From Escherichia coli (GTDB lineage: Bacteria > Pseudomonadota > Gammaproteobacteria > Enterobacterales > Enterobacteriaceae), in NCBI RefSeq assembly GCF_048403405.1, contig NZ_CP183129.1: 64,000 nt of DNA. One strand, given 5' to 3'. The notes below the pieces were generated by a model that saw nothing but the letters and a program-made list of their open reading frames with translations, had not been told where the DNA came from and did not search any database. Within the stretch, counting starts at the first letter, position 1. Every line of letters begins with the position of its first letter. The translations under genes were made by a program, and so were the position numbers. Shown here piece by piece: positions 29,449-54,188 of the stretch.

Positions 29449-31622
<2,174 letters not shown>

Positions 31623-31720
31623 TACGTATCCTTATACCTGAAATCTTCGCAAGTATGCCTGGCCGCGAGATTATGGCACACTTGTCCGGTTAACTCTCGT
31701 CTCATACAGGTAACACAAAC

Positions 31721-31765
31721 GTGAAAATCCTTGTTGATGAAAAAAATGATGACTTAATTTATTGA
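31721..31765 (+). pseudogene. pdxB: Probable 5' remnant of pdxB (first ~7 codons, then a stop)
   Basis: GTG AAA ATC CTT GTT GAT GAA reads VKILVDE, resembling the PdxB N-terminus MKILVDENMPYA recalled from K-12, then diverges into AT-rich sequence and stops after 14 codons. Confidence 0.4.
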
Positions 31766-31819
31766 TGTAAAAGGATTTATGTCAGCGCGTGTCCACGCAG
31801 TGACCACATTTTCGAGTTA

Positions 31820-31861
31820 CAGATAACACAAAGCCCGTTTTCACGGGCTTTGTGTTATCTG
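31820..31861. other. Perfect 18-bp-stem hairpin just inside the element junction
   Basis: CAGATAACACAAAGCCCG-tttt ca-CGGGCTTTGTGTTATCTG, exact reverse-complement arms; lies 30 nt downstream of the stop of the 31891-32784 gene. Confidence 0.8.
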
Positions 31862-31890
31862 TGATTGTGGCTAAGCCACATGATTTAATA

Positions 31891-32784
31891 CTATTTCCAG
31901 TTACAAGCAGCTTGAAGCGGTTTTAGCGCGTTTGACAGGCCGTTTAAATTGAAAGTTGCACTTACGGGGCTCTCATTATAAGGCGTTATTTTTGTATACA
32001 TTTTGCTTGAGTTGGCTAGTTTTCGGATGAAATCAATGTCATTACCTTTATAAAAAACAGCCTTTGTATCTGTAGATACTAGCCAGTTTCGCTCAACTGC
32101 TTTCTGTTTATCAAGGCGATAAAGCATGCTGGTTTGTTCAAGGCCTAAATATACATCCCAACTAAGAAATACTTCGGTTTTCTTTTCTCGGCAAGCTATA
32201 AAAAGAGTAGGAGTAACCGCTTCTCCAAATGGAGTTCTGATATAATCATCACTTTCTAACGATAAAATTACATTTTTCGAATCATCAATTGGCGATGTAG
32301 TAATGGATGTGTGCCATTTTCCTACATCTGTGGCTTTCTCTAATTTTGATTCAGCTTGAGCGATTTTATCCTGTGGGAATAGTTTATCGTAGCAGTTTAG
32401 TCTGGCTTCTTTATCATTTTCTGCACGACATTTAGATATCTCAGAAAGATTTGGTTGCTGAGCCTCTGTTGTTACTGGCTTTTCCGTTTTAGATTTTGAG
32501 TTTACAGATGGAGTAAATGTTGGAGAAAAGAAACGATCATAACAAGATAAACGTCTATCATCATCTTTCTCATCAGGGCATTGATCTCTGCTTTCGAATT
32601 TTTCAGCAACTTTCGTTCGAGTCGGTTGTATTGACTTATCGTAACAAGAAAGTCTGTCTTTATTATTTTCTATTGCTCGGCACTGGAGTACTGCATTGAA
32701 GTTCTTATGTTCAGTTGCTGCTTGAACAGGCAGTACACTAATTGATATAAATGATGCACCTATAGAAAAAATTATATTTTTCAT
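31891..32784 (-). CDS. AT-rich secreted protein with three Cys-Tyr-Asp repeat motifs, unknown function
   Basis: 297-aa ORF with signal peptide (MKNIIFSIGASFISISVLPVQA) and three repeats RLSCYDK / RLSCYDR / RLNCYDK; visibly AT-rich. Confidence 0.7.
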   Translation of the reverse strand: MKNIIFSIGASFISISVLPVQAATEHKNFNAVLQCRAIENNKDRLSCYDKSIQPTRTKVAEKFESRDQCPDEKDDDRRLSCYDRFFSPTFTPSVNSKSKTEKPVTTEAQQPNLSEISKCRAENDKEARLNCYDKLFPQDKIAQAESKLEKATDVGKWHTSITTSPIDDSKNVILSLESDDYIRTPFGEAVTPTLFIACREKKTEVFLSWDVYLGLEQTSMLYRLDKQKAVERNWLVSTDTKAVFYKGNDIDFIRKLANSSKMYTKITPYNESPVSATFNLNGLSNALKPLQAACNWK

Positions 32785-32788
32785 TTTA

Positions 32789-33121
32789 TTATCCCTTTGG
32801 TTTAGTAAGAAATACTAAAATTCCGATAATGATATCGCCAATAACCCATAAGCTTCCAATGGTAATTAAACCTAAGCCTGTACCAATAACTGCACCGGCT
32901 TTTTCGGCATCGGATGTGGCATTATTTATTATTTCACTAGTGCCTCCTAGTCCAACTAAAAGCGTATAGATCATAAAAATATTAAATAATATAAAAACCC
33001 ACTTAATGATCCGTCCAAAAAATGAACGCTTAAGTTTTTGCAGTTGTTTACCACAAGCAGGGCAATACAATGCTGAATCGCTCACCTCTTTCTGGCATTC
33101 AGGACATTTGATTAATGCCAT
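32789..33121 (-). CDS. Zinc-ribbon membrane protein, unknown function
   Basis: 110-aa ORF with N-terminal CPEC-x12-CPAC zinc ribbon and two hydrophobic helices; 4 nt upstream of the repeat-protein gene, forming an operon. Confidence 0.65.
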   Translation of the reverse strand: MALIKCPECQKEVSDSALYCPACGKQLQKLKRSFFGRIIKWVFILFNIFMIYTLLVGLGGTSEIINNATSDAEKAGAVIGTGLGLITIGSLWVIGDIIIGILVFLTKPKG

Positions 33122-33383
33122 GTAATCCGCCTCCTTTGGATTAATACGAGTTGATATTTGTTACAAAACATTTTGATTTTATCAGATTTATTTTTATTGA
33201 TAAGTGTCAATTGATTAGCTGGTATAGAGTGAGGCATATAGAAGGGCTGGTCTGTATCAGTATGTGATGCAAAAATCCCACAGTTTCATGGAATTTTTGC
33301 ATTTAGAGCTGTGAGATAGGGTGCCTTATCGACCTTACCCTGGCAACCGATTGACGGGGGATTACTCCCCCGTCGCGGTTTCC

Positions 33384-33524
33384 TTACTGCTTACACTGTA
33401 AGAACGCCGCAAACTCCGCTCCCCAGAAGCTCATCCGTATTTCACACAGCGAACCGTGCAGCATCCAGATGATGAGGATTACCGTCACGCAGAACGTGAT
33501 GGCCGTAAGCGATTTTTGCGACAT
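33384..33524 (-). CDS. Hok/Gef-family type I toxin-like small membrane protein
   Basis: 46-aa ORF MSQKSLTAITFCVTVILIIWMLHGSLCEIRMSFWGAEFAAFLQCKQ with AAGGAG 7 nt upstream; carries the Hok signature SLCEIR-6 residues-E-x-AAF after a TM helix. Confidence 0.6.
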   Translation of the reverse strand: MSQKSLTAITFCVTVILIIWMLHGSLCEIRMSFWGAEFAAFLQCKQ

Positions 33525-33714
33525 AGCGCTTGCTCCTTTTTCGGGGAGGCGCTAACCTATCACTTGCTTAGGGTAGACGGTTAGGGCCTCGGTTAAACAA
33601 AAGTGTTTTCCGGGGCCTTTCCACATCCGGCCATCGGGTATTCCCTCCGACCATCAGCCGAAAGGCACCCGCGCGTAATCTATCGCTTTTTTGTTACTCC
33701 GGCAATTCTGCCTG

Positions 33715-33975
33715 TTAATTCTGAGGTAAAGGCAAACTCATCTGATTGTTTCCCCTGTGTGAAGCTGGCAGCTCATGCCACGGGATACCTTCTGAAGAGT
33801 GAACGCCGGAGGCGTGTTTTGATGTGAATTTATGGAAGGCTTCCAGTGTTGAGAAGCATACGCCGCATTCCAGATTGTTACACTGGTAATACTTTTGCCG
33901 CACGGTGTTTGAATCATTTTCCGGACGACTGGTGCGGATACGGGCAGATGCGCCACAAAGCGGACAACGGAACAT
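33715..33975 (-). CDS. ogr: Ogr/Delta-family zinc-finger late transcription activator
   Basis: N-terminus MFRCPLCGASARIRTSR with a second Cys pair (CNNLECGVC), as in P2 Ogr. Confidence 0.85.
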   Translation of the reverse strand: MFRCPLCGASARIRTSRPENDSNTVRQKYYQCNNLECGVCFSTLEAFHKFTSKHASGVHSSEGIPWHELPASHRGNNQMSLPLPQN

Positions 33976-34017
33976 AGCGACCTCCCTTAACGTGGTGCTG
34001 CCGCTATTCTAAGTTGC

Positions 34018-35127
34018 TCACTCTGTTTCCGCTATCCATTCCGGGATTTTTGCCTCAAGCTCAAGCTGCGTGGTAAAGCCGCTGTTATCAATAGTGTGCT
34101 CGGCTTTTGCAATGATCCAGTCCTGATTATCAATCTCGCTTTTAAATCCTGTTACCGTACCATGCATTTCGGGGTAGAGTTCTGCACGTCCACGCGCCAG
34201 CGTGATGGAGAATGATGCGGCTCCGCGTTGTAGTTGCTGCCACTTTGCCGCCGCTGCGCGTCTTGCTGCCTGTTCGTTCTGATAGGTCTTGCGTAACACA
34301 AACACATTGCCTTCCGCGCCTTCCATATAATCACCTTCACGGCTGCTGCTTTTCTCCTTTTGGGGTTTTGGTGGTTTGCGGCGTTTCACGCTGACTTTTT
34401 TCTTTTCCCCGTAATTAAGATCAAGCCAGTAGGCGCGTACCCCCGTATACGCCTCGCGGTCAGCAATACGGAACTGATGGCGATCGCCGCTGCTGCGTGT
34501 AATGGCGAACGAGGGCAACGGCTGGCCCTGTGCGTTCACGCCACCACCTGGCATGATGAATAACAGATTGCCGCTTTTTACCGTGGTGATTGCGCCCAGC
34601 ATTTCCGCCATGCGCGTAAGGAAGGACATGTCGCTTTCTTCGGTCTGGTCGGCGTGGTCGATTTCGATATCCATCAGCATTTCGCTGATTTGTGGTTTCA
34701 GACCATACCGATGAGCGATGGCGGATACCACACGCTCAACGGTCACATCATGCCAGGACACCTCACGTTTAACGTTAAATTCATCCCGAAAATCTGCGCT
34801 TCTGGCTGAAACAGTCAGCCTGTCCGGCGGTCCTTCGTGAGCGATTTCATCAACAATGTAAGTGCCTTTTTCTGTCAGCGGTTCTCCTTTCCAGCCAATG
34901 AGAACCGTCAGGCGCGCGCCCCGTGGCGGTAGCTGCAACTGACCATCCGCATCATCCAGCGTGATGGTGAGCTGGTCCGCCTCAAATCCCCGGTTGTCGG
35001 TCAGTGACAGGCTCATCAGGCGCTCTGCCACGCCTGACAGCGTTTTACCCTCCGCGAGAATATCAAAATCCGGCATTTTCACGGGGTCTGTGCCCTGACT
35101 GAGCAATTGCATGGTGGTGTCGGTCAT
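34018..35127 (-). CDS. D: Phage tail protein D (late control gene D family)
   Basis: ATG at 35127 preceded by GGGAGGGAA; about 370 aa, gpD-like; the track ORF is extended 44 codons upstream. Confidence 0.8.
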   Translation of the reverse strand: MTDTTMQLLSQGTDPVKMPDFDILAEGKTLSGVAERLMSLSLTDNRGFEADQLTITLDDADGQLQLPPRGARLTVLIGWKGEPLTEKGTYIVDEIAHEGPPDRLTVSARSADFRDEFNVKREVSWHDVTVERVVSAIAHRYGLKPQISEMLMDIEIDHADQTEESDMSFLTRMAEMLGAITTVKSGNLLFIMPGGGVNAQGQPLPSFAITRSSGDRHQFRIADREAYTGVRAYWLDLNYGEKKKVSVKRRKPPKPQKEKSSSREGDYMEGAEGNVFVLRKTYQNEQAARRAAAAKWQQLQRGAASFSITLARGRAELYPEMHGTVTGFKSEIDNQDWIIAKAEHTIDNSGFTTQLELEAKIPEWIAETE

Positions 35128-35284
35128 CTGTTCCCTCCCTGTGCGGCATGGTCGCATGTGCGTGCGGAGGGGGTTACTGCTTTTTGTTGTCGCCGGGTCG
35201 GGAGAACGGCGCAGGGGTGAGATTACGCGCGTGGTGGGTGATGATTGTTGCCGAATCATTTAACGGATACAAGGGGCTGAAGCT

Positions 35285-36469
35285 ATGAGTGAAACTCGTT
35301 TTCATGGTGCCCGTGTTACGGAAAATACCGACCTGGTAACAGCGATTAACGATGTTGATTCCAGCGTTATCGGTATCGTGGCAACGGCGGATGATGCGGA
35401 CGCGAAGCTGTTCCCGCTGAATAAGCCCACACTGCTGACCCGCGTCAATGACGTGCTGGGAAAATGCGGGACAACGGGGACGCTTTATCGTGCGCTTAAG
35501 GCCATCGCAGACCAGGTGAGCACAAAGGTGATCGTCGTTCGCGTGGCTGAACACAAAGAAGAAGACGGAAAGACGCAGGATCAACTGGTTATCGGTGGTT
35601 CTGAGGATGACGGCAGCTATACGGGGATGTATGCGCTGCTTGTTGCAGAGCAGGATGAAAGCATCGGATACCGTCCGCGTATTCTGGCCGCGCCGGAGCT
35701 GGACACGGAGGCTGTAACAAAATCCCTGTGCGTGATTGCAGGTAAACTGCGCGCGTTTGTGTATGCCTCATGTCACGGCTGTAACACGATGGCTGAGGCG
35801 ATTACCTACCGCCAGAAATTCAACGAACGTGAGGTGATGCTCTTATGGCCGGACTTCATCGCCTACAACCCGAAAAGTGGCAAAAACGAAACGTTCCCCG
35901 CGCCTGCCTATGCGTGCGGCCTTCGTGCGTACATTGACCATGAGCAGGGCTGGCACAAATCGCTGTCCAACGTTCCGGTTAAAAATGTGCTGGGAATGTC
36001 CAGGCATGTGTTCTGGTCGTTGCAGGCCGAAGACAGCGATGCCAACAGCCTCAACAACAAAGAAATCACGACCATTATTCGTCGCAACGGGTTCCGCTTC
36101 TGGGGCAACCGCACACCGGAAACGAACGCCTACATCTTTGAGGTGTATACCCGAACCGCACAGGTGCTGGCTGATTCAATTGCGGAAGCGCAGTTTGAAA
36201 CCATCGACAGTCCACTGACACCTGCGAACGTGAAGGATGTTATCAGCGCCATCAGGGCAAAACTGGATTCGCTGGTTACTGCCGGGAAACTGATTGGTGT
36301 GGAGTGCTGGTATGACGTGGTGGATAACGGCACCACGAATTTACGTCAGGGACGTGTGCGTATTCGCTACAAATATACGCCTGTTCCCCCGCTGGAAGAC
36401 ATGGAGCTTTACCAGACGTTTACTGATGAATTCTTTGGTCCCGCATTTGCGGTGCTGGGAGGTGCCTGA
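35285..36469 (+). CDS. FI: Contractile tail sheath protein FI
   Basis: 394-aa product of P2 FI size; followed by tube, E/E', tape measure and U in P2 order. Confidence 0.85.
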   Translation: MSETRFHGARVTENTDLVTAINDVDSSVIGIVATADDADAKLFPLNKPTLLTRVNDVLGKCGTTGTLYRALKAIADQVSTKVIVVRVAEHKEEDGKTQDQLVIGGSEDDGSYTGMYALLVAEQDESIGYRPRILAAPELDTEAVTKSLCVIAGKLRAFVYASCHGCNTMAEAITYRQKFNEREVMLLWPDFIAYNPKSGKNETFPAPAYACGLRAYIDHEQGWHKSLSNVPVKNVLGMSRHVFWSLQAEDSDANSLNNKEITTIIRRNGFRFWGNRTPETNAYIFEVYTRTAQVLADSIAEAQFETIDSPLTPANVKDVISAIRAKLDSLVTAGKLIGVECWYDVVDNGTTNLRQGRVRIRYKYTPVPPLEDMELYQTFTDEFFGPAFAVLGGA

Positions 36470-36981
36470 TGGCTGTACCAAAACATCTTCGCTTTTTTAC
36501 GTTGTTTGTGGATGGTGAAAACGAAGTGGGTAAAGTGACATCCGTCACGCCGCCCAAACTGACGCGCAAAACCGACAGCTATCGTGGTGGTGGCATGATG
36601 GGGGCGGTAAGTATTGATCTCGGTCTGGACGACTCCGCGCTTGATGCGAGTTTTGTCATGGGGGGAGCTGTTCGTGCGCTGTTCCTTAAATATGGCGGCA
36701 CGATTGACGGCACGCTGCTGCGTTTTGCGGGTGAATACTACACCGATGCAGAAAGCGATCTGTATGAAATCGAGATGCGCGGGCGTGTGACGGAAATTGA
36801 TATGGGGGAAGCCAAACAGGGCGAAGCCACATCACACACTTACGCTGTCAAAAACACCTACTACAAGCTGAGCGTTAACGATCGCCCGCTGTGGGAAATC
36901 GACCTGTTGAACCACATCTACCGGAAGGACGGCAAGGACATTGTGCCTGACCGTATCCGTTCCGCGCTTGGGCTTGGCTGA
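36469..36981 (+). CDS. FII: Tail tube protein FII
   Basis: 170-aa product; start overlaps the FI stop (TGATG). Confidence 0.85.
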   Translation: MAVPKHLRFFTLFVDGENEVGKVTSVTPPKLTRKTDSYRGGGMMGAVSIDLGLDDSALDASFVMGGAVRALFLKYGGTIDGTLLRFAGEYYTDAESDLYEIEMRGRVTEIDMGEAKQGEATSHTYAVKNTYYKLSVNDRPLWEIDLLNHIYRKDGKDIVPDRIRSALGLG

Positions 36982-37036
36982 TAAGTAATATGCAGGCGGC
37001 GCAGTGCGTCGCCTCTGACTGAAAAGGAGACAACTG

Positions 37037-37411
37037 ATGAAAGACATCGATACTGAAACCCGGAATAACACCGTGGCGGATGATGTGACGGCAGGTGAGG
37101 ATATGGCTGTCGAACGTGGCGTAAAACTGACCCGACCAATTGAGCGTGGTGGCGAAAAAATCACGTATGTGGAGATCACCGGGGCTATTGAGCAGGCTGG
37201 ATCCCTGCGTGGTCTGTCGCTGTCTGATGTGCTGAATCTGAAAGCGGATACCATGTTTACGCTGTTGCCTCGCGTGACCTCGCCACGACTGGATGAAGTG
37301 ATGATTAAAAAAATGTCGTCACGCGATTTTATTCAGTTGTGCGCTGTGGCTGTAAATTTTATGAGCGAGCCAGACTCTGGCGCGAAGAGCGTGCAGGAGA
37401 CGGCAGCGTAA
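37037..37411 (+). CDS. E: Tail assembly chaperone E
   Basis: 124-aa ORF with AAAGGAG upstream; an overlapping -1 frame ORF follows, the E/E' arrangement of P2-type tail chaperones. Confidence 0.75.
   Translation: MKDIDTETRNNTVADDVTAGEDMAVERGVKLTRPIERGGEKITYVEITGAIEQAGSLRGLSLSDVLNLKADTMFTLLPRVTSPRLDEVMIKKMSSRDFIQLCAVAVNFMSEPDSGAKSVQETAA
37307..37313 (+). promoter_or_regulatory. Candidate -1 programmed frameshift site (A7 run) for E+E'
   Basis: AAA AAA A in the E frame. The -1 frame has a TAA at 37306-37308 and is open from 37309 to 37575, so slippage on Lys codons would fuse E (to ...VMIKK) to the E' extension. Confidence 0.5.
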
Positions 37412-37575
37412 TCACCCTGGTGTGCTTTGAGCACATCGAAGATCTGGTGGCGGATATTGCCGCCATTTTTAACTGGTCGCCCGCCGAAATCTTCATGATG
37501 ACGCCCGGCGAAGTGGTTAGCTGGCGCGAGCGGGCGGCACTTCGCAGCGGGAATGCAGATAATGAAGACTCTTGA
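37309..37575 (+). CDS. E' extension (-1 frame) of the tail chaperone, expressed only by frameshifting
   Basis: Open -1 frame with no own start or RBS context; ends at a TGA overlapping the start of T. Confidence 0.55.
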   Translation, partial: KNVVTRFYSVVRCGCKFYERARLWREERAGDGSVITLVCFEHIEDLVADIAAIFNWSPAEIFMMTPGEVVSWRERAALRSGNADNEDS

Positions 37576-40369
37576 TATCCGGGTCGCTTTCAGCGCCGTT
37601 GACAGGCTGACCCGGCCTGCCGAAAACGCCCGCCGCCTGATGGGGCAGTTTGGTGACTCCATCCAGCGAACGCAGGGGGCGATCAAAAATCTCGAGCGTC
37701 AGGCGCGTTCATTTGAGCGCGCCCGTGACGCTGTCAGTAAAGCGGATGCTGGCATCGTGAAAGCACGACGCCAGCTTAACGCCCTTAATCAGTTACAACG
37801 CACGGGTACAGTGCTCAGCGAAAAACAACAAAAGCTGATGCAGCAGTTAAGCACCCGGCTTGAACGCCTGAATGAATCGCGCACACGGGAAATTCAGAAA
37901 ATGCGGGAGCTTGGCGGAGAGCTGAAACGCCACGGCATTTCCCTGACAGGCAGCGATAACACCATCCAGCAGGCCATCAGACGCACCGAACAGTACAACA
38001 ACCAGCTTGAACGCGAACGGCAGGCGCTTGCGCGTGTAACGCGGGCGCGTGAGCGGTATTCGCGCGCGCAGGAAACAGCGGGAAAACTGAAAACAGGTGG
38101 TGCGCTGGCAATTGGTGCGGCAGCGGCGGGCGGCTATGCTGCCGGGCGTTTTTTGCAGCCTGCGATCGGGTTCGGCAAAGAGATGTCCCGCGTTCAGGCA
38201 CTGACGCGAATCGACCAGAACAGCCCGCAGTTTAAGGCGCTGCGTGAGCAGGCGTTAAAACTTGGCTCTGAAACGCAGTTCACCGCAGGCGATGCCGCCA
38301 GTGGACAGGCATTTCTTGCAATGGCTGGCTTCACTCCGCAGGCCATTCAGGCTGCGCTTCCCGGCGTGCTGAGCATGGCAACGGCTGGCGGTATGGATCT
38401 CGGCGAGACGGCAGATATTGGCTCAAATATCCTGACGCAGTTCGGCCTTTCTGCTGACCAGATGGACCGGGTCGGTGACACACTCACCGCAGCGTTTACC
38501 CGTACCAACACTGACCTTCGCGCACTGGGCGAAACCATGAAATATGCAGGTCCGGTGGCGGGTAAGCTGGGAATATCGCTGGAGCAGGCCGCAGCGATGG
38601 CTGGCGTGCTGGCGAATATGGGCATCAGAGGGAGTGATGCCGGGACGGCAATGCGTGCCAGCCTGGCTCGTCTGGCATCACCGCCAAAGGCGGCGGCAGA
38701 AGCTCTGAAAGAGCTGGGCGTGTCCGTCTCGGATGCCGGGGGCAAAATGCGCCCGATGGAGGATGTGCTGGCCGACCTTTATAAAGCCACCCGTAAATAC
38801 GGGGAAGTTGACCGGGTATCGTTCTTTAAGGACATTGCCGGAGAAGAGGCTTTCACATCGTTTATGGCGCTCGTTGATGCAGCGGGTGACGGTTCCTTAC
38901 CCAAACTGAGAAAAGAACTTGAAGGCGCGCGCGGTGAGGCTGAACGCACAGCAAAGGTTATGGCCAACAACCTTGACGGCGATCTGAAATCACTCGGCAG
39001 TGCATGGGAAGGGTTGCGCATCCGCATTGCAGATCTGATTGACGGTCCGCTGCGTTCTGTCACGCAGTGGCTCACGCGGGTGGTCTCAAAAGTGACGGCA
39101 CTGGCGCAGGCCCATCCGGCACTGACGCGCCAGTTACTGATAGCGGGAGGTGCACTGCTGGCGACAACAGCAACGGTTGGTTCGTTGTCTCTGGTTATTG
39201 GGGTGCTTCACGGGAAGCTGGCTACGTTACGTCTCGGTTTTTCTCTCCTGACCGGATCAATGAATGCTGTCAGGGGCCTGCCAGCACTATGGGGAATGGT
39301 GACGGGTTCCGTTTCTTTACTGGGAGGCGCTATCGGGGCGCTGATCAGTCCGGTTGGTCTTATCGTGGCTGCGCTTGCCGGAGCTGCCGTTCTTATCTGG
39401 AAATACTGGGATCCCATCAGGGCATTTTTTGCCGGGGTGTTCAGCGGGATTATGGAAAGGCTGACCCCGTTGCGCGAAACCTTTGAACGGTTTGGTCCTG
39501 TTTTTGACGCAATCGGAAGCGGGATCAGCCAGGTGTTTAACTGGTTTAAATCGCTGCTGTCACCGATGGAGTCCAGCAAGGAAACGCTGGATAAATGTAC
39601 CAGTGCTGGCGAGATATTCGGTAACGTTCTTGGCGGTGCGTTACAGCTTGTTCTGACACCTGCAAAAATGCTACTGGATACGCTGGCGTGGATACTTGAA
39701 AAACTTGGCGTCCTTCCGGATGAAGCGGAAAAGGCGCGCAAGAAAATCGAAGACGCACAGCGTGCGGCCATTCTTCAGGACAAGGTTGCCTTGCTTCAGG
39801 GGGACCTTGCGAAAATCAATCCGCCGAAGCCTGTGGAAAATGGCAATGGCACCGGAGGTGATAAACCCAAAGACAACAAACCGCTCACAGACAGCAATAC
39901 CGGGACGCTACGCAGACTCAGCAAAATTGCTGATAACACAGGTAAGCTGGTTGATGAGACGAAAAAACGCATTGGCCCTGGCGATATTGTCTTTAAGAAC
40001 CTGCCCCGCGCACTTGCTGTTCGTGGGGAGTGGCAGGAGCGGAAGATTGCGCAGGTCAGTAAGCCTGCCCCCGCAATTAATATCACACCCGTAGTCCCGG
40101 CTCCGCTGCCTCCGGCGCTGGTCCCTGTTGTTGCGGCCAGCTCCCGCCCGGTGGCGGAGGCCATACGATCGCCAGTGGCATCAGTTCCTGCAGCTTCCCG
40201 TAATCGGGAGCCTGCTGTCTCCAGATTTGGCGGTGAAATTCATGTTCATCTGCATAACGTTGTTACGCAGAATCCCCGCGAACTGGCGAAACTGGTCGGT
40301 GAAATGGTCAGGGCAGAGATGGAACGGCGCGCCCGTGCCGGACGTGGCAGTTTTTACGATAAAGATTGA
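37553..40369 (+). CDS. T: Tail tape measure protein T
   Basis: 938-aa product with coiled-coil N-terminal half and Gly/Ala-rich hydrophobic central segments; the start could instead be the ATG at 37562. Confidence 0.85.
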   Translation: MQIMKTLDIRVAFSAVDRLTRPAENARRLMGQFGDSIQRTQGAIKNLERQARSFERARDAVSKADAGIVKARRQLNALNQLQRTGTVLSEKQQKLMQQLSTRLERLNESRTREIQKMRELGGELKRHGISLTGSDNTIQQAIRRTEQYNNQLERERQALARVTRARERYSRAQETAGKLKTGGALAIGAAAAGGYAAGRFLQPAIGFGKEMSRVQALTRIDQNSPQFKALREQALKLGSETQFTAGDAASGQAFLAMAGFTPQAIQAALPGVLSMATAGGMDLGETADIGSNILTQFGLSADQMDRVGDTLTAAFTRTNTDLRALGETMKYAGPVAGKLGISLEQAAAMAGVLANMGIRGSDAGTAMRASLARLASPPKAAAEALKELGVSVSDAGGKMRPMEDVLADLYKATRKYGEVDRVSFFKDIAGEEAFTSFMALVDAAGDGSLPKLRKELEGARGEAERTAKVMANNLDGDLKSLGSAWEGLRIRIADLIDGPLRSVTQWLTRVVSKVTALAQAHPALTRQLLIAGGALLATTATVGSLSLVIGVLHGKLATLRLGFSLLTGSMNAVRGLPALWGMVTGSVSLLGGAIGALISPVGLIVAALAGAAVLIWKYWDPIRAFFAGVFSGIMERLTPLRETFERFGPVFDAIGSGISQVFNWFKSLLSPMESSKETLDKCTSAGEIFGNVLGGALQLVLTPAKMLLDTLAWILEKLGVLPDEAEKARKKIEDAQRAAILQDKVALLQGDLAKINPPKPVENGNGTGGDKPKDNKPLTDSNTGTLRRLSKIADNTGKLVDETKKRIGPGDIVFKNLPRALAVRGEWQERKIAQVSKPAPAINITPVVPAPLPPALVPVVAASSRPVAEAIRSPVASVPAASRNREPAVSRFGGEIHVHLHNVVTQNPRELAKLVGEMVRAEMERRARAGRGSFYDKD

Positions 40370-40375
40370 GGAGTC

Positions 40376-40870
40376 ATGGTCATGATGATGATCTACGGCA
40401 TGTTTGTTTTTGAGCTGCGCACACTGCCGCATCAGCAGTTACAGCAAAACAAAAGCTGGCGGCATGTGAAAAATGAACGCGTTAACCGTTCAGCAAGCTG
40501 GCAGTATATAGGTGCAGGTGATGATCGCATTGTGCTTTCCGGCGTGCTTTATCCTGAAATTACAGGTGGCGAAGTGTCGCTTTCGTTGCTGACCACGCAG
40601 GCATATACAGGACGCCCCTGGCCTCTGATTGATGGTGTCGGGCAGATTTACGGCATGTATGTGCTGACTGAAACGAATACGACCCGTTCCGAGTTTGATC
40701 GCTACGGTAAGGCGAAAAAGATAGAATTTTCACTGACCCTTGAACGCTGTGATGAGGATTTGCGGGAGCGCCTGCAATCCTCATCATTCAGCGATATGCT
40801 GTCCGGCTTCAAAGATAAGGTGACATCATCTCTTAACAGCGCGGCCAGTTCAGTTAAAGGGCTGTTCTGA
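40376..40870 (+). CDS. U: Tail protein U
   Basis: 164-aa product (MVMMMIYGMFVFELRTLPHQQLQ...), gpU-like. Confidence 0.8.
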   Translation: MVMMMIYGMFVFELRTLPHQQLQQNKSWRHVKNERVNRSASWQYIGAGDDRIVLSGVLYPEITGGEVSLSLLTTQAYTGRPWPLIDGVGQIYGMYVLTETNTTRSEFDRYGKAKKIEFSLTLERCDEDLRERLQSSSFSDMLSGFKDKVTSSLNSAASSVKGLF

Positions 40871-40883
40871 TTTAACACAAAAA

Positions 40884-40916
40884 CCGCTAATGGTCAGATT
40901 AGCGGTTATTTTGTTT
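40884..40916. terminator. Terminator hairpin between convergent U and invertase genes
   Basis: CCGCTAAT-ggtcag-ATTAGCGG followed by TTATTTTGTTT on the plus strand, with a T-run also on the minus-strand side; overlaps the invertase stop. Confidence 0.65.
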
Positions 40917-41493
40917 CCTGACTCTTCTCTATTGTTCCGATTGATTCTCCTGCGGGGTGGTAACGATAAATCGTCGATATACCAATGCCGTAAATTATTG
41001 CCAGTTGTTTTCTGTCGTGCCCGTTTTTGATCAGCCTTGCTATTTGCTCATGCTGTTCTTTTGTCAGCTTCGGTCGACGTCCGCCTGTGCGCCCCCGTGC
41101 GCGTGCTGCCGCCAGTCCGGCCAGTGTACGTTCAACAATTAATTCACGTTCCATTTCAGCCAGGGCACCCATCACGTGGAAGAAAAAACGCCCCATTGGA
41201 GAAGATGTATCTATGCTGTCGGTCAGACTGCGAAAATTAATTCCTCGCTCCCGTAGTTCCCCGACGAGAGAAATCAGATGTTTCATGCTTCGCCCGAGGC
41301 GATCCAGTTTCCAGACAACCAGCGTGTCACCTTTTTGAAGGCGCTTTAAAGCGCGTTTTAATCCCGGTCGGTCTGTCTTTGTCCCGCTTAATTTATCTTC
41401 AAATATTTGTTCACATCCTGCACAAACAAGAGCGTTTCGTTGCAGGTCTGTATTCTGGTCATTTGTTGATACCCTTACATAGCCAATCAGCAC
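40906..41493 (-). CDS. pin: Serine DNA invertase (Hin/Gin/Cin/Pin family)
   Basis: GTG at 41493 gives MLIGYVRVSTNDQNTDLQRNAL... with the catalytic Ser in GYVRVST and a C-terminal HTH; the track ORF starts at TTG 41511. Confidence 0.9.
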   Translation of the reverse strand: MLIGYVRVSTNDQNTDLQRNALVCAGCEQIFEDKLSGTKTDRPGLKRALKRLQKGDTLVVWKLDRLGRSMKHLISLVGELRERGINFRSLTDSIDTSSPMGRFFFHVMGALAEMERELIVERTLAGLAAARARGRTGGRRPKLTKEQHEQIARLIKNGHDRKQLAIIYGIGISTIYRYHPAGESIGTIEKSQETK

Positions 41494-41547
41494 GCTGAAT
41501 CTCCCGTCCAAAAGCGCAAATCATGCCATGCAGGCCGGAAACGGCCA

Positions 41548-41575
41548 TTATCTAAAACCTCGGTTTACAGGAAAC
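41548..41575. other. gix/pix-type recombination site (left)
   Basis: TTATCTAAAACCTCGGTTTACAGGAAAC, differing at one base (position 6, T vs C) from the Mu gix sequence TTATCCAAAACCTCGGTTTACAGGAAAC as I recall it. Confidence 0.75.
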
Positions 41576-42581
41576 GGTAAACAAGGCTGGTAACGCCGTC
41601 CAAAAGACAGGCGATATCTTGTCCGGTGGGCTTACTTTTGAAAACGACTCAATCCTTGCCTGGATTCGGAATACTGACTGGGCAAAGATTGGTTTTAAAA
41701 ATGATGCCGACAGCGATACTGATTCATACATGTGGTTTGAAACAGGCGACAACGGCAATGAATATTTCAAATGGAGAAGCAAACAAAGCACCACAACAAA
41801 AGACCTGATGAATCTTAAATGGGATGCTTTGTCTGTTCTTGTTAAAGCCCTTTTCAGCAGTGAAGTAAAAATATCGACAGTCAATGCACTGAGGATATTT
41901 AATTCATCTTTTGGTGCTATTTTTCGCCGTTCTGAAGAATGCCTGCATATCATCCCGACACGAGAGAATGAGGGAGAAAATGGTGATATAGGGCCACTAC
42001 GCCCCTTTACGCTTAATCTCAGAACTGGTCGGATAAGCATGGGGCATGGTCTTGATGTTACAGGGGATATATTTGCAAACCGTTTTGCAATTAACAGTAG
42101 TACCGGCATGTGGATTCATATGCGTGACCAGAATGTTATTTTGGGACGCAATGCGGTATCCACCGATGGTGCACAGGCATTACTTCGTCAGGACCATGCT
42201 GATCGCAAATTTATGATTGGTGGGCTGGGAAATAAGCAATTTGGCATCTACATGATTAATAACTCAAGGACAGCTAATGGCACCGATGGTCAGGCGTACA
42301 TGGATAATAACGGGAACTGGCTTTGCGGTTCGCAAGTTATTCCCGGCAACTATGGCAATTTTGATTCCAGATATGTGAAAGATGTTCGACTTGGTTCACA
42401 GCAATATTATGGAGTGAACAACTGGCAAACATGGAATTTCCAGTGCCCGTCAGGTCATGTATTGTCTGGTATTAATGTTCAGGATACAGGGTCCAACTCT
42501 GCCGATAATATAGCGGGCGTTTATTACAGACCCGTTCAAAAGTATATAAATGGCACCTGGTATAATATAGCGAGCGTTTAA
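41576..42581 (+). CDS. Alternative tail-fiber C-terminal segment (Sv'-like), silent in this orientation
   Basis: Frame continues in phase through the left site ([14 protein letters not shown]...) and has a TAA inside the site, so there is no own start; ends [12 protein letters not shown] like the active fiber end. Confidence 0.7.
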
Positions 42582-42582
42582 T

Positions 42583-43110
42583 ATGATGCACTTAAAGAAC
42601 ATAAAAGCGGGTAATGCTAAAACACTGGAACAGTATGAGTTAACAAAGAAGCACGGAGTCATCTGGCTTTACTCTGAGGACGAAAAAAACTGGTATGAGG
42701 AAGTGAAAAACTTTCAGCCAGACACCATAAAGATTGTTTACGATGCAAATAATATTATTGTCGCCATCACTAAAGATGCCTCCACGCTTAACCCTGAAGG
42801 TTTTAGCGTCGTTGAGGTTCCAGATATTACAGCCAACCGCCGCGCTGATGATTCAGGAAAGTGGATGTTTAAGGATGGAGCTGTAGTTAAACGGATTTAT
42901 ACGGCAGACGAACAGCAACAACAGGCCGAATCACAAAAGGCCGCATTGCTTTCCGAAGCTGAATCAGTCATCCAGCCGCTGGAACGCGCTGTCAGGCTGA
43001 ATATGGCAACAGACGAGGAACGCACACGACTGGAAGCATGGGAACGCTACAGTGTTCTGGTCAGCCGTGTGGATACGGCAAATCCTGAATGGCCACAAAA
43101 GCCTGAATAA
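42583..43110 (+). CDS. Tail fiber assembly protein, alternative copy
   Basis: 175-aa product [23 protein letters not shown]..., paralogous to the 43139-43672 gene. Confidence 0.8.
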
Positions 43111-43115
43111 AAATT

Positions 43116-43135
43116 AAGGCCCGCTATCGGGCCTT
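43116..43135. terminator. Hairpin between the convergent tail fiber assembly genes
   Basis: AAGGCCCG-ctat-CGGGCCTT. Confidence 0.5.
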
Positions 43136-43138
43136 GTC

Positions 43139-43672
43139 TCATTCAGGTTGTTCGGGAAATGTTACTGGCAGGCTGGAGGTGTCTGTAGATTCGACTTTCT
43201 GCGCATAGAGCATCCACTCGGTTAATTTTGGTTTATTCTCGTCGGAAATGATGCCCAGCCGTAGCTGTGAGTCCCATAGCTGGGTTTTATCCCTGACAAG
43301 TTGCAACAGGCTTTGCTTTTCATTTTCCGCCTGCTGCCTCTGCTCTTCCTCGGTATAAGTTCGCTTTACCACTACGCCATCTTTGAACATCCATTTACCC
43401 GAAATGTCAGCACGGCGATTTGCTGTAATATCAGGTAATTCAACGACGCTTGCGCCTTCCGGATTAATTGCTGAAACATCCTTTTCAATACAAATAATAA
43501 CGCCGTTATGGTCATAGACCATTTTTAAAGTGTCTGGCTGGAAATTCTTTTGTTCCTCATACCAGTTTTTTCCATCCTCTGAATAAAGCCATTTGATGTT
43601 AAATTGTTTCGTTAGCTGGTATTGCTCTTTTGTTTTAGGGTTGCCAGCAGTAATGTTTTTTAAGTGCATCAT
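43139..43672 (-). CDS. Tail fiber assembly protein (G-like), active orientation
   Basis: 177-aa product [23 protein letters not shown]..., immediately downstream of the fiber gene. Confidence 0.85.
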
Positions 43673-43674
43673 CG

Positions 43675-45777
43675 TTAAATACTCCCCGCGTTATACCACG
43701 TCCCATTAATGCAATACTGAATTGGCCTTGCCTGAGTTGTATCAATTAATTCATCACGGTTTCCGTTAACTGAACCCGTAACGACATAACCTGACCTGTC
43801 AGACCAGCCGGGACCATTCCATGTCTGAACAGATGACAGACCGCCAAGGCGAATACCTGTAATAAACCTTGAGTTACATTCTGCCTGCGTGTATGCACCA
43901 ACATCTCCCGCTGAGGGTTTGCGGGTCGTGGTGTAAAACTCTGACCAGTCAGCTTCAAAGCCATAACCATCACGCGCTGAACGATAAAAAATGCCGCCGT
44001 TCCTGTAATTCACGCGGAACTGTACAGCAGGGCAACTCCCCGCATTCATATTGAAATGAAGAATTAACGTTGATGCGCCGGTGATTCTGGCGCAATAAAC
44101 TCCGCTGTTCCAGTTCCAGCCAACAGCTTTATCATTTCCGACAGTGCTTCCTGTTTGCCCTAAAGCAAATGCAGGTTGTTGATTTTTCGTGTTGTAGTCT
44201 CGTCGCCAGCCAGGAGCGTAAGCATCACCATGATTGATATAAGTGAATTGAGCGTTAGTAATTCCGCCACCGCTGGACGTGCTCGGCGTGGTAACGCGTA
44301 TGGTCATTGCGCCGCGAGTGCCAATAACTTCCACCACAGCACCTGCAAGACAAATATTTCCGCAACCTGTATCTGTAATGACCTTATTATTTGCATAAGC
44401 CCATGAGCCTTTGCACATCCAGTAAGGATGGTTAAATGCTCCCTGACTCTCCAGCCACGAAATAAATTGCGCGGTTGTCCAGACCTGACTATCGCCACCA
44501 ATATTCAGCCATGCGCTATATGCGCGGCAGGCACCAATATTTTTGGTGAAGGTATCTTTTCCTGGAATATCTGCGCCGTTCTGGTTTTTCTGTAATGCGC
44601 CAGAAGCCTGATTTACCGTTTCCTGTAAACCGAGGTATTCGATAACGGCAGCAACGGTCGATTTCGCAAGAATATCCCGCCCGACTTTTGTCAGGGTTGC
44701 CAGGCTGGCGACATCATTCCCCGTAAAATACGGAAACCTGTCTGCCGCAGTAGCAAGCCCGGCCAGCGCCGTCAGGGTGGCATCTTTCGGTTGCTTACCC
44801 GCAAGCGCTTTAGTCATGGTGGTCGCAAAATTCGGGTCGTTTCCCAGCGCCGCCGCTAACTCGTTCAACGTATTCAGTGCGTCAGGCGACGAGTCTACAA
44901 GTGCGGCAATCGCGGCCATCACATAAGCCGTGCTTGCGATCTGAGTATTATTAGTCCCTTTTGGCGCAGTTGGCGTTGTTGGCGTTCCGGTCAGTGCAGG
45001 ACTATTTAAGGGCGCTTTCTTGTTCGTTTCATCCATTACCGCCTTAACCGCTTTTGGCGTCGCAGCCAGCGTTTCAGATGTGCTGTTGGTGGCGCTACTG
45101 AGCTGAACTATCCCTTTTCGCGCAGTGGTAGCGTCCTGTGCGGTGTATTTGCCATTAGCCAGGTCATATGCCGCCTTAACAGCCTTTGGCGTTGCCGCAA
45201 GCGTTTCAGACGTGCTGTTAGTGGCGCTGCTAAGTTGAACAAAGCCTTTTGCGGTCAGCGAGGCGTCCGGGTGACGTCGTGAGTGTTCATGCTCTTTCAG
45301 TTTGTCATCCACGTAATCCACTGTGGCCATCACCATGGTGTTATCCACGGTAAGCGCCACGGTGGCAGTGCTGGATACGGTCAGAATGGTGCGAAATGTT
45401 TGTGCACGTCCTGACCCTTCGGCAACGGCTGGCTTGTAACTTTCGGCAGTATTGCCTACTGCGATTAAATCGCCGTGCTCATCAAACACACCAATTTCCC
45501 GGATCCAGAATCCGCCCGTTTCTGGAGGAATAACCAGCTCCGCAATAATGCGGTTCTGATGTGTTGCGTCCAGTATGACGCGATTAACAGTGTGTCGCCA
45601 CACCTCATGCACCAGACGGGTCTGCTTACTGTCTGGTGTGGGCAACGTGCCGCCACCGTCGCCCACGGCCATATGAGTCAGGCGGACAGGCTTACCATCT
45701 GGCGCGGCTGCCTGAGCTAATTTTTTTGCACCCGTATCGGTGATAACGGTTTTAAATTTTCGTGTTGTGGTACTCAT
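43675..45777 (-). CDS. H: Tail fiber protein H, with its C-terminal ~320 codons inside the invertible segment
   Basis: 700-aa ORF; reading frame passes through the right recombination site at residues [11 protein letters not shown]. Confidence 0.85.
44618..44645. other. gix/pix-type recombination site (right), inside the tail fiber gene
   Basis: GTTTCCTGTAAACCGAGGTATTCGATAA, the reverse complement of the left site with two mismatches. Confidence 0.75.
45041..45268. repeat. Tandem direct repeat (two copies of ~96 bp, 132-bp period) inside the tail fiber gene
   Basis: Encodes [23 protein letters not shown] twice, 44 aa apart. Confidence 0.8.
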
Positions 45778-45779
45778 GC

Positions 45780-46310
45780 TTAATCGTCCGGATAAATGGT
45801 AATGACTTCACCGTCGTAAGTTGCTGCCGCCGCGAAAATATCTCCCGGGATCTCCTGAATGATATTCAGCCCTGTCATGTGGCGGCTGACCGGGCGGGCA
45901 TCAGCAATCAACCGCTCCATTTCCAGATACATTTCCTCCGTCACGCCACTGTCCAGCGTGCCGACTTCAACGGTAAATGTTCCCGGTTCTCCGCCGAACT
46001 CCCACCACTCAGACACGCGAATGAGGTATCCCAGCGGCTCAATGGCCCGGCGCAGTGCGCTGATGGTCCCTTTGTGTCGGTGTATCAGCCATGCATCACG
46101 AATCACCTGTCGCTTTGTCTCTTCCGGCCAGTTGCGATCCCAGCGGTCAACGGAAAATGCCCAGGCGAGATAAGGCAGCAAATGCACCGGGCAGGTGTCC
46201 GGTGACCACAGCGTGTTGAGGTCTACCGGGATGTCTGTAATGCGCGCTCCGACAGCTTCGGCGCAACGCATGAAACGGCTGGCTGATGGCGGTAACAGTG
46301 AATTACTCAT
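45780..46310 (-). CDS. I: Baseplate/tail protein I
   Basis: Start at 46310 gives 176 aa, P2 gpI size; overlaps the J stop. Confidence 0.75.
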   Translation of the reverse strand: MSNSLLPPSASRFMRCAEAVGARITDIPVDLNTLWSPDTCPVHLLPYLAWAFSVDRWDRNWPEETKRQVIRDAWLIHRHKGTISALRRAIEPLGYLIRVSEWWEFGGEPGTFTVEVGTLDSGVTEEMYLEMERLIADARPVSRHMTGLNIIQEIPGDIFAAAATYDGEVITIYPDD

Positions 46311-47199
46311 TGCGCCCACCTTCGCTGATGGTGAATGACTCACAGCGCGCCGCCTGTATGTCGCTGATGGCCAGATTCTGTGTGGGTTCGATTATCTCCA
46401 CGCGTTGCACACCGTGCACATGCAGTGCGGCAGCAATGGCGGACAACGCCACGTCCTGACCGATAAGCCCCTGCTCAGCCAGCCACTTCCTGAACGACGA
46501 TTCAGCCGCCGCCAGAATAGGTTCGGATTCCGGACCGGGGTAAAAGTACAGTTTTGCATTCAGCCGCCATGTCACGATTCTGGCGCTCTGTACGGTCAGG
46601 CGGTCGGCCACCGGGCGGGTATCCTCTGCATTCAGAACGGCGCGAACGGTATTAAGCAACGCCTCCGTTGCTGTGCCGTCGCCTTCAGTGGACAGGATGG
46701 AAACCGTCACATTTGCCGGAGACGGACTGATAGCCCGCGCATCACGCACCAGACCGCTGGCGCTGCGGGCAAAATACTCGTATGCACCTGACGGGCCAGC
46801 AACACTCAGGCCGTCGTACGCCCGCTGCGCCCGCAGTCTCAGCGAGGTGTCGCTCTCCATCACCGCGTCGGTGGTATCCGTTGCCGGAGTGATAACCAGG
46901 CGCTTTGTGTTCATATTGCCCGCGAGGTTGTCCAGGTCTGTCCCGGCGCTGTGGCTTAACATGCAGGCGCGTGCCCCCTCGTTAACCCGCTGGCGTAACA
47001 GCATTTCACGAAACGACATGGTTTGAGCGATAACGTTCAGGGGTTCCGATTCCAGCTCCAGCGCGGCGGAAACGGCTTCACGCTGTTCGGCGGGATAGGA
47101 CGCAATCATCATGGCTTTTGTGTCAGCCAGAATTGCTTCAAAGTCAGGCTCCGCGATGATGGCGGGTTCCGGTAACTGGGAAAGGTCAACGGCGGGCAT
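46303..47199 (-). CDS. J: Baseplate assembly protein J
   Basis: 298-aa product in P2 J position and size. Confidence 0.8.
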   Translation of the reverse strand: MPAVDLSQLPEPAIIAEPDFEAILADTKAMMIASYPAEQREAVSAALELESEPLNVIAQTMSFREMLLRQRVNEGARACMLSHSAGTDLDNLAGNMNTKRLVITPATDTTDAVMESDTSLRLRAQRAYDGLSVAGPSGAYEYFARSASGLVRDARAISPSPANVTVSILSTEGDGTATEALLNTVRAVLNAEDTRPVADRLTVQSARIVTWRLNAKLYFYPGPESEPILAAAESSFRKWLAEQGLIGQDVALSAIAAALHVHGVQRVEIIEPTQNLAISDIQAARCESFTISEGGRNE

Positions 47200-54034: not shown

Positions 54035-54188
54035 AGTTTTTGCCCCTCTGACTGGTTCTTCAGTCATGATGGCAAAGCGTAACAGGCTGATACAAAGGGC
54101 TTTTGTTGTAAGAAAACAGTCAGAACAGGGGGTTAAGGAGAACGGTTTCGCGCGCGGGTAATCTTCCTGTAATTACTCAGGGGGAGCA

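Follow-up and report, generated by a model that had tools for sequence, protein, structure and literature searches.

Gene content and strand organization

The window analyzed here, a 64,000-nucleotide stretch of DNA, is Escherichia coli chromosome carrying a P88-like (Xuanwuvirus) prophage of the P2 family. When its 13-kb portion from 33500 to 46500 was used as a query, phages P88, P884B11, and phiSM showed 95 to 97% DNA identity over about 77% of the query, and 18 of the 22 prophage proteins compared by tblastn, all from the part of the prophage that lies in the window, are 97 to 100% identical to those of P88. An ICTV genus usually corresponds to about 70% identity across the genome. Over the in-window part of the prophage, both the nucleotide identity to P88 and its relatives and the gene order of the type phage place it in Xuanwuvirus, the order and strands ogr(−) D(−) FI(+) FII(+) E(+) T(+) U(+) invertase(−) switch H(−) I(−) J(−) W(−) V(−) being identical in P88 and phiSM. 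The P2-type contractile tail module is complete, with FI, FII, the frameshift chaperone pair E/E', T, U, and D all matched (PHROGs; tblastn to P2), and every ortholog was recovered in both P2 and Fels-2.

At the left of the region, on the minus strand, lies ogr (33715-33975), encoding an 86-aa late activator of the ogr/Delta zinc-finger type and positioned downstream of D as in P2. Its product is 36% identical to P2 Ogr and 99% identical to that of P88 (tblastn); the match to NCBIfam NF007241 (1.6e-11) falls under the family cut-off, and in the identical locus of CRE1540 the gene is annotated as "ogr/Delta-like zinc finger family protein." D (34018-35127, minus strand; phrog_52, 1e-166) encodes a 369-aa baseplate hub/VgrG-like tail protein that is 50% identical to D of P2, 54% to that of Fels-2, and 99% to that of P88 (tblastn). 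A 413-aa open reading frame at 34018-35259 was considered for D and rejected as too long, the start that matches relatives being the ATG at 35127. With D starting there, the 157-bp gap that separates D from the divergent FI (35128-35284) and forms the left junction of the block begins at 35128, the left boundary given in the initial annotation.

On the plus strand follow FI, the tail sheath gene (35285-36469; phrog_23, 3.6e-125; 45% identity to P2 FI and 98% to P88), FII, the tail tube gene (36469-36981; phrog_55, 1.1e-58; 42% identity to P2 FII), and E (37037-37411; phrog_103, 1e-36), at whose position a "GpE family" open reading frame is annotated in the CRE1540 locus. E' ends at 37575 in the −1 frame relative to E, so that E/E' spans 37037-37575, and A_AAT_TTT at 37354-37360 is a candidate slippery heptamer for the pair. 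The tail tape measure gene T (37553-40369; phrog_28, 3e-215; 98% identity to P88) and the tail protein gene U (40376-40870; phrog_76, 9e-75; 46% identity to P2 U) complete the block. GC skew is positive over FI-U, which reflects coding-strand bias only and is uninformative on the age of any inversion. An Rfam scan of 31000-47000 returned no family at threshold.

At the right junction, U converges on a Gin/Cin/Pin-type serine DNA invertase gene (40906-41511, minus strand; phrog_125, 1.3e-96; 74% identity to the Fels-2 invertase), with 35 bp between the two stop codons. The true start of the invertase is probably at 41493, giving 195 aa; the gene is annotated with 588 nt in P88. A hairpin at 40882-40907 (inverted repeat I20), with T-runs on both strands, scored as a terminator on both strands in a terminator scan, and the right boundary initially given for the block, 40905, falls within it. 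Beyond the invertase gene lies a 3.1-kb tail-fibre switch (41548-44645), a real invertible segment containing silent Sv'/U' (41619-43110, plus strand) and expressed U/Sv (43139-44617, minus strand). The tail fibre gene H (43675-45777, minus strand; 56% identity to P2 H) comprises a constant part and the variable part currently joined to it.

The strands and gene identities of the initial annotation are correct throughout: ogr, D, the invertase gene, and H are on the minus strand and FI-FII-E/E'-T-U (35285-40870) on the plus strand, so that FI points away from D at one end of the block and U points towards the invertase gene at the other.

The inverted order is the ordinary layout of a phage lineage

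P2 has the order H-G-fun(Z)-FI-FII-E-T-U-D-ogr on one strand, and the block is indeed inverted relative to it, as the initial annotation had it. Being an observation of gene order, the inversion is not a matter of chance. The canonical P2 F operon (FI-FII-E-E'-T-U-D on one strand downstream of pF, with D after U) is absent from the window, where D lies upstream of FI on the other strand. Fels-2 has ogr-D-U-T-E-FII-FI-invertase-switch-H on one strand, and the comparison with it supports an inversion in place between D and the invertase/fibre region still more exactly than that with P2. That part of the initial annotation stands; the causes that it suggested, a promiscuous invertase or a misassembly, do not.

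A misassembly would consist of a contig placed in the wrong orientation between two repeats, and the one thing that speaks for it is the unusual order relative to P2. However, both junctions are unique sequence without flanking repeats. The D-FI junction is contiguous in 1,108 of 5,426 complete E. coli genomes (about 20%) at 95 to 100% identity, including an identical copy in CRE1540, and the junction between U and the invertase gene is contiguous in 620, with an identical copy in SWHEFF_68. The same order is also seen in several phage genomes obtained from particles or inductions, among the independently sequenced phages P88, P884B11, phiSM, and SEN5. The chance that the order is an artefact is therefore negligible.

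The initial annotation had named a normal layout of this kind, common to all related phages, as an observation that would refute its explanations, and the relatives surveyed do have that layout. Annotation confirms the inverted layout in the viable phages P88, P884B11, and Citrobacter phiSM, and in phages 520873, 503458, phiSM, P884B11, and P88 the layout is the same, falling in one BLAST place on one strand. A synthetic query for the colinear U-D junction found it in none of the 1,414 E. coli genomes that hold both halves. Among IMG/VR loci, FI is on the strand opposite to D in all 80 whose D is 64 to 99% identical to that of the window and in all 80 of the SEN5 branch, where D is 60 to 65% identical; 147 of these 160 loci show the whole block, and the other 13 are short contigs that show only its FI end. 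Synteny with P2-type phages and with these relatives thus identifies the inverted order as normal for the P88-like clade. The FI-U flip is real, and we conclude, with a probability of about 0.9, that it is an inherited, fixed gene order of a group of P2-related phages and the ordinary layout for this lineage.

The layout is already known from public annotated genomes rather than from a description that could be cited: no explicit mention of the inversion or of the gene order was found in the searchable literature on P88, phiSM, SEN4/5, P2 hotspots, and the diversity of P2-like phages.

The adjacent invertase acts on the fibre segment

The initial annotation raised the possibility that the adjacent Gin-type invertase had flipped the 5.8-kb block at secondary (pseudo-gix) sites, which would make the inversion a recent event in this strain or its recent ancestors. 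The position of the invertase gene, abutting the right end of the block, favors such an event, as does Fels-2, in which the block has the same neighbors and the other orientation. Nevertheless, the same layout is present in relatives that have no invertase, namely Salmonella phage SEN5 (Senquatrovirus), Klebsiella Kp4871-3, and E. coli Ecol_224 and CRE1540, as well as in Klebsiella Reginaelenavirus. In Ecol_224 and CRE1540 a glycosyltransferase or acetyltransferase gene occupies the slot of the invertase gene.

The distribution of crossover sites also argues against the involvement of the invertase. A gix-like 28-mer with at most 3 mismatches has only two matches in the window (0 expected), at 41548-41575 and 44618-44645, and both flank the fibre segment, whose ends form inverted repeat I3. 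At the junctions of the block, where the initial annotation had suggested looking for gix-like half-sites, a relaxed scan found nothing above background: the best resemblance is 15 of 26 bases near the D-FI junction, located inside the D coding sequence, and 14 of 26 near the junction of U with the invertase gene. A recombination event between the gix site at 41548 and a pseudo-gix site would, moreover, have flipped the invertase gene too, which is not observed. No inverted repeat joins the two ends of the block; the pairs listed are short, with 70 to 80% matches, and look like chance. The 5.8-kb FI-U block thus does not qualify as an invertible segment, having no bounding crossover sites of about 26 bp and only one orientation among the genomes and loci surveyed (0 of 1,414 colinear and 160 of 160 inverted). 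Given the invertase-less relatives, the junctions without gix sites, and the lack of polymorphism, a recent invertase-mediated flip is extremely improbable.

The segment at 41548-44645, in contrast, has the features of Gin/Hin/Cin/Pin invertible segments, with an adjoining serine invertase gene, inverted crossover sites, and alternative fibre ends and chaperones. It is 90 to 93% identical at the DNA level to the Mu G, P1 C, and P7 C segments and carries two fibre-assembly genes in opposite orientation (phrog_136) together with Sv and Sv'. We therefore suggest that the invertase flips only this neighboring 3.1-kb segment and was almost certainly not involved in the inversion of FI-U.

Origin of the inversion

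P2, Fels-2, Cartapus, phiCTX, and PHL101 all have the colinear order. In neighbor-joining trees of D, which lies outside the block, and of FI, which lies inside it, the phages with the inverted order cluster together, separate from the colinear phages; the tree of J is mosaic and incongruent with both. That colinear is ancestral and inverted derived is a polarity based on these five colinear taxa and on simple neighbor-joining trees. The opposite polarity, with divergent D and FI ancestral for P2-like phages and the colinear order of P2 derived, is very unlikely, as colinearity extends to distant genera on other hosts (phiCTX of Pseudomonas and PHL101 of Mannheimia) in addition to P2, Fels-2, and Cartapus, the trees of D and FI each place the inverted taxa together as one inner group, and a derived colinear state would require several independent re-inversions.

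Alternatively, FI-U might be a cassette acquired from a different phage lineage and inserted in the opposite orientation. Phage genomes are mosaic, the J tree is incongruent with the D and FI trees, and T is the most diverged protein, with 25 to 33% identity to Fels-2 and P2. However, the trees of FI and D recover the same grouping of the inverted phages, and the proteins encoded in the block are about as close to those of P2 and Fels-2 (25 to 48% identity) as are those encoded outside it (26 to 62% for D, I, J, W, V, S, R, M, N, O, P, and Q); values for FI (45 to 48%), FII (42 to 45%), and U (46%) match those in the flanks for D and J (50 to 54% each), N (42%), and P (44 to 45%). In addition, the ends of the block coincide exactly with the unit of P2 that runs from the pF promoter to U. 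We consider such a replacement unlikely, and even if it had occurred, the event would still be ancient and clade-wide.

Therefore, we favor an inherited inversion: most probably, the pF promoter and FI through U were inverted together, once, in the common ancestor of a clade of Peduoviridae that includes at least Xuanwuvirus, Reginaelenavirus, and Senquatrovirus, and the new order has been fixed ever since.

A candidate shared activator site in the D-FI gap

The D-FI gap contains a candidate late-activator box of the P2 type, TTGTTGT-N12-AGAAC, at 35184-35207, with the TGT at 35188 and the center at 35196.5. Its core at 35188-35205, TGT-N12-AGA, is one base off the classical TGT-N12-ACA, the dyad that is centered near −55 in the Ogr/Delta-dependent late promoters of the P2 family; relatives have either ACA or AGA. 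The box was revealed by allowing A(C/G)A and by the alignment of the gap across the clade, which shows conserved blocks; perfect TGT-N12-ACA has 9 matches in the window, below chance expectation, and none of them is in a late-gene gap. As TTGTTGT-N12-A(C/G)AAC, the box is present in 66 of 68 distinct D-FI gaps; its half-sites are invariant, while its spacer varies. Its center is 68 to 70 nt from the ATG of D in 59 of the 68, and up to about 79 nt in the rest, and 82 to 89 nt from the ATG of FI in 65. The same type of box occurs in the O/P gap of the window (54107-54124), and similar activator sites are annotated in P2, whose record has a single such site for the divergent promoters pP and pO, with transcription starts 55 to 56 nt on either side.

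A scan of 33400-41700 for sigma-70 promoters gave no candidates in the D-FI gap, as would be expected if the promoters there are activator dependent. Three points count against promoters of the P2 type here: the one-base departure of the box from the classical sequence, the leader of only about 14 nt that a start 55 nt from the center of the box would leave before the ATG of D, and the poor −10-like element predicted for D, GCGACC.

From the conservation and position of the box we infer that two divergent promoters, pF and pD, lie within the 157-bp gap and would share the box as their Ogr-binding site. The P2 F operon would thus have been split. Rightward transcription of FI-U would start at the late promoter carried along with it and probably end at the two-way terminator shared with the invertase gene, and D, presumably no longer translationally coupled to U, would be read leftwards from the same gap. 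A conserved dyad box at a fixed distance from both starts points to one Ogr-bound site driving two back-to-back late promoters as the most likely arrangement, as at the P/O gap of P2. That the inversion itself made pF a bidirectional late promoter, with one Ogr-type dyad box activating both FI-U and D, is a reading drawn from that analogy to which we would give even odds. To our knowledge, no bidirectional pF late promoter has been described in this clade.

Implications

The result is mainly a negative one: neither annotators nor scanning pipelines should take this order for a rearrangement, a misassembly, or a sign of promiscuous invertase activity, as a very common type of E. coli prophage, found in about 20% of complete genomes, has it as its standard map. 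The layout also provides a clean structural marker for the clade comprising Xuanwuvirus, Reginaelenavirus, and Senquatrovirus. Further, the point where U and the fibre genes converge would be the variable cargo slot, lying here between U and a fibre-assembly gene rather than between G and FI as in P2, which matters for surveys of cargo and defence hotspots that are anchored on P2 gene order. PADLOC applied to the cargo open reading frames gave only a weak Csx27-like match.

The conserved D-FI box offers a small, testable case of an operon that was split by inversion and yet may have stayed co-regulated. If the two promoters do share one site, D, of which a virion contains only a few copies, would no longer be tied to the strongly expressed operon of sheath and tube, and the symmetry of the activator site would explain how a one-step inversion that severed D from its operon could be viable.

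Comparison with known systems

The closest counterparts are P88, P884B11, and phiSM, in which the order and strands of the genes between ogr and V, with the invertase and the fibre switch among them, are those of the window. Differences from P88 are concentrated in the variable parts of the tail fibre (H, 79% identity over 504 aa), E (75%), O (81%), A (88%), and the cargo genes, the TagO-like and zinc-ribbon cargo of the window being found likewise in phiSM and CRE1540. SEN4/SEN5 (Senquatrovirus) and the Klebsiella Reginaelenavirus phages show the same flip of FI-U, again placed between D and the fibre genes, but they infect other hosts, lack both the invertase and the fibre switch, and have a D that is 63 to 70% identical.

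The segment at 41548-44645 is of the same kind as the Mu G, P1 C, P7 C, and e14 P segments served by Gin, Cin, and Pin, with two inverted crossover sites beside an invertase gene. The FI-U block, unlike these, has no crossover sites, no alternative gene sets, and no polymorphism.

The structural genes of the window are orthologous to those under the Ogr-dependent late promoters of P2 (pP/pO, pV, and pF). As in P2, a dyad box of the TGT...ACA type, here a candidate activator site, lies about 81 to 89 nt upstream of FI, with AGA in the window in place of the ACA of P2, and the P/O pair of P2 provides the precedent of a single annotated site that serves a divergent pair of promoters. Whereas the F operon of P2 ends with D, the window has this gene on the opposite strand, preceded by a ribosome-binding site of its own and, putatively, by its own promoter. 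Fels-2 (Felsduovirus) has the same gene set and neighbors (ogr, D, U-T-E-FII-FI, a Gin-type invertase, an invertible fibre segment, H, I, and J), although the proteins, except for the invertase, are just 25 to 55% identical to those of the window. There FI-U is on the strand of D and H, and U overlaps D, so that the region is effectively an un-inverted version of the one described here.

Gene order and phage relatives

ORF mapping and family searches reveal a P2-family prophage that begins at about 31.9 kb and extends past the right end of the window. Its ogr (33715-33975) and D (34018-35127) genes lie on the minus strand and are followed on the plus strand by FI (35285-36469), FII (36469-36981), E/E' (37037-37575), T (37553-40369) and U (40376-40870). 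A Gin-type invertase gene (40906-41511), a fibre-assembly (chaperone) gene (43139-43672) and H (43675-45777) are again on the minus strand, as are I, J, W, V, S, R and further genes beyond H. The annotated P2 order is H-G-fun(Z)-FI-FII-E-E'-T-U-D-ogr, all on one strand. The initial annotation was therefore right that the FI-to-U block is inverted relative to P2, and the prophage lacks a canonical F operon because D lies on the opposite strand.

A 413-amino-acid ORF was rejected as D because it is too long; the true start is the ATG at 35127, preceded by a GGGAGGG ribosome-binding site, so that the D-FI gap at the left junction of the block is 157 bp (35128-35284). In some RefSeq genomes the intact 1,110-nt D ORF is broken into an 801-nt "VgrG/Pvc8 family" CDS and a small opposite-strand pseudogene fragment (positions 13519-14372 of the CRE1540 locus and 2829-3682 of the Ecol_224 locus, both E. 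coli), and near-identical sequences elsewhere are annotated as a full "phage late control D family protein." At the other end, U and the invertase gene converge on a hairpin (40882-40907) that scores as a terminator on both strands. The tail module is of complete P2 type, the -1 frame E' included. Its candidate slip heptamer, A_AAT_TTT (37354-37360), lies about 50 nt ahead of the E stop, whereas the P2 slip site, TTTTTTG, lies about 20 nt ahead; E is 124 amino acids long compared with 91 in P2, and it is only 75% identical to E of P88.

A 13-kb query over the region matched phages 520873, 503458, phiSM, P884B11 and P88, all within or beside the genus Xuanwuvirus (Peduoviridae), at 95 to 97% identity, each match falling in a single place on one strand. 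Proteins of P88 were 97 to 100% identical to those of the window in 18 of 22 genes compared, and by the membership tests that were run, all of which it passes, the prophage would belong to Xuanwuvirus. The E. coli chromosomes CRE1540 and SWHEFF_68 are 100% identical to the window at the junction regions; the host genes at the CRE1540 locus are aroC, mepA, mnmC, fabB, yfcJ and flk, followed by the prophage. In the Citrobacter phage Shae_phiSM record (OR565851.1, 2294-4745), product names seem to be off by one gene: judged against tblastn results, the name "ogr/Delta-like zinc finger family protein" has been given to D and "late control gene D protein" to the sheath gene.

The inverted layout is standard for the lineage

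Annotation of P88 and phiSM gives an order and strands identical to those in the window, and active phage has been reported from both, spontaneously from phiSM and on induction from P88 (PMC6456863). The D-FI junction (34500-35900) is contiguous in 1,108 of 5,426 complete E. coli genomes, almost without exception at 95 to 100% identity, which argues against the earlier suggestion of an assembly artefact. A synthetic colinear query, in which the 600 nt that end with the U stop were joined on one strand to the initial 600 nt of D, found U and D adjacent on one strand in none of the 1,414 genomes of the same set that contained one or both halves. Among IMG/VR loci, FI opposed D in 80 of 80 with D 64 to 99% identical to that of the window and in another 80 of 80 from a scan seeded with D of Salmonella phage SEN5 (60 to 65% identical to the window's); the whole block was visible in 147 of the 160 and the FI end only in 13 short contigs.

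Inversion by the invertase at a secondary site had also been raised as a possibility, and the gene does abut the block. However, SEN5 (Senquatrovirus) and Klebsiella phage Kp4871-3 (Reginaelenavirus) carry the same inversion without an invertase, and in the same prophage type in Ecol_224 and CRE1540 other genes replace the invertase and its switch. Only two gix-like sites were found in the window (41548-41575 and 44618-44645); they are in inverted orientation and bound a 3.1-kb segment (41548-44645) that is 90 to 93% identical to the Mu G and P1/P7 C segments and is the substrate of the invertase. A relaxed scan for gix sites gave background-level best scores of 15/26 near the D-FI junction, within the D coding sequence, and 14/26 near the U-invertase junction, and no inverted repeats pairing the two block ends were found. 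On both testable counts, the FI-to-U block does not qualify as a Gin-type invertible segment. In the current orientation of the switch, H extends across the right site into one variable end and the chaperone gene at 43139-43672; the alternative fibre end (41619-42581) and its chaperone gene (42583-43110) are silent on the other strand.

Polarity and age of the inversion

The colinear order is found in P2, Fels-2, Cartapus (Elveevirus), phiCTX (Pseudomonas) and PHL101 (Mannheimia), and Fels-2 is the exact un-inverted counterpart of the window, with ogr-D-U-T-E-FII-FI-invertase-switch-H on one strand. In a phage collection banded by D identity to the window, every genus checked among 48 records at 60% or above was inverted, and all those checked among 476 records below 60% were colinear. 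A single group of inverted phages, apart from the colinear ones, was recovered by neighbour joining both for D, which lies outside the block, and for FI, which lies inside it; the tree of J was mosaic, as is expected in the baseplate and fibre region. Genes within and outside the block show similar identity to P2 and Fels-2. The simplest reading of this limited taxon sample and of unrooted-style trees is that pF together with FI through U was inverted once, in place, in an ancestor of the inverted clade. We conclude that the inversion is real relative to P2 but ancient and fixed, and neither invertase mediated nor artefactual.

Variable cargo slots

In about half of the genomes matching at the U-invertase junction, the match ends exactly at the end of U, marking the U/fibre convergence point as a variable cargo slot. 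Between U and the fibre-assembly gene, this slot holds the invertase and switch in the window (40871-41600), a family-9 glycosyltransferase in Ecol_224 (locus positions 9672-11040) and a serine acetyltransferase in CRE1540 (20372-21143). It corresponds to the fun(Z) slot of P2 but adjoins U instead of FI.

Low-GC cargo (about 0.41) also occupies the ogr end of the prophage, beside host flk (31891-33500). It includes a TagO/VasI-like type VI secretion-associated protein (31891-32784; TIGR03360, 3.6e-21, below cut-off), a 110-amino-acid zinc-ribbon protein (32789-33121), both also present in phiSM, and a hok/gef-family gene annotated in P88 and CRE1540. A stretch of very low GC (0.376; 57000-59600) runs from the portal gene Q to a ParM-like gene (59417-60376) that, with a 955-amino-acid replication gene, borders it. 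This stretch corresponds to the old/tin cargo position of P2, and family searches of its ORFs gave no matches except a weak Csx27-like one (58172-59014; 1.6e-05).

A putative shared activator box

Alignment of D-FI gaps across the clade revealed three conserved elements in otherwise diverged sequence. The central box, TTGTTGT-N12-A(C/G)AAC, occurs in 66 of 68 distinct gaps and is one base off in the remaining two; its TGT and A-A positions are invariant over 42 distinct contexts, in contrast to the freely varying 12-nt spacer. The distance from the box centre to the ATG is 82 to 89 nt for FI in 65 of 68 gaps and 68 to 70 nt for D in 59 (up to about 79 nt in the rest). About 45 nt from the box toward FI is GA(T/A)(T/G)AT, and the mirror position on the D side is occupied by G(A/C)(A/G)A(C/T)C within a GC-rich block.

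The arrangement resembles that of late promoters in P2, whose record marks activator sites with half-sites of the TGTTGT type upstream of both pF and pV, and a single site lying between the divergent pP and pO, whose transcription starts are 55 to 56 nt away on either side. The O/P gap of the window has a box of the same type, TGT-N12-AGA (54107-54124), which fits only if translation of the scaffold gene O begins at an internal ATG (54034), the start given for the 837-nt gene in P88; that ATG is probably the true start rather than 54067, since otherwise leftward transcription from the box would begin inside coding sequence. Box conservation and the likeness to P2 suggest that the pF box may have moved together with FI and now also serves a leftward promoter of D, with predicted transcription starts near 35251 and 35141. 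We put the chances of this arrangement at about even; its weak points are a poor D-side -10 and a leader ahead of the D ATG that would be short.

Insertions are present in some relatives at the 5' end of D, beside the gap. Two IMG/VR loci (L049 and L050) have an FI-to-D interval that is longer by about 1.2 kb, with a D match from residue 89 only, and in E. coli O157:H7 (records H51 to H53) an IS30-family element is annotated there; such insertions would separate D from its putative promoter. IS100 occurs elsewhere in the region in phages 520873 and 503458.

A literature search covering papers on P88, phiSM, SEN4/5, P2 hotspots and P2-like diversity found no published comment on the inverted layout. 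Because the annotated public genomes of several named genera display that layout, we regard it as already known, and the only mildly new element is the putative late-activator box shared by FI and D.
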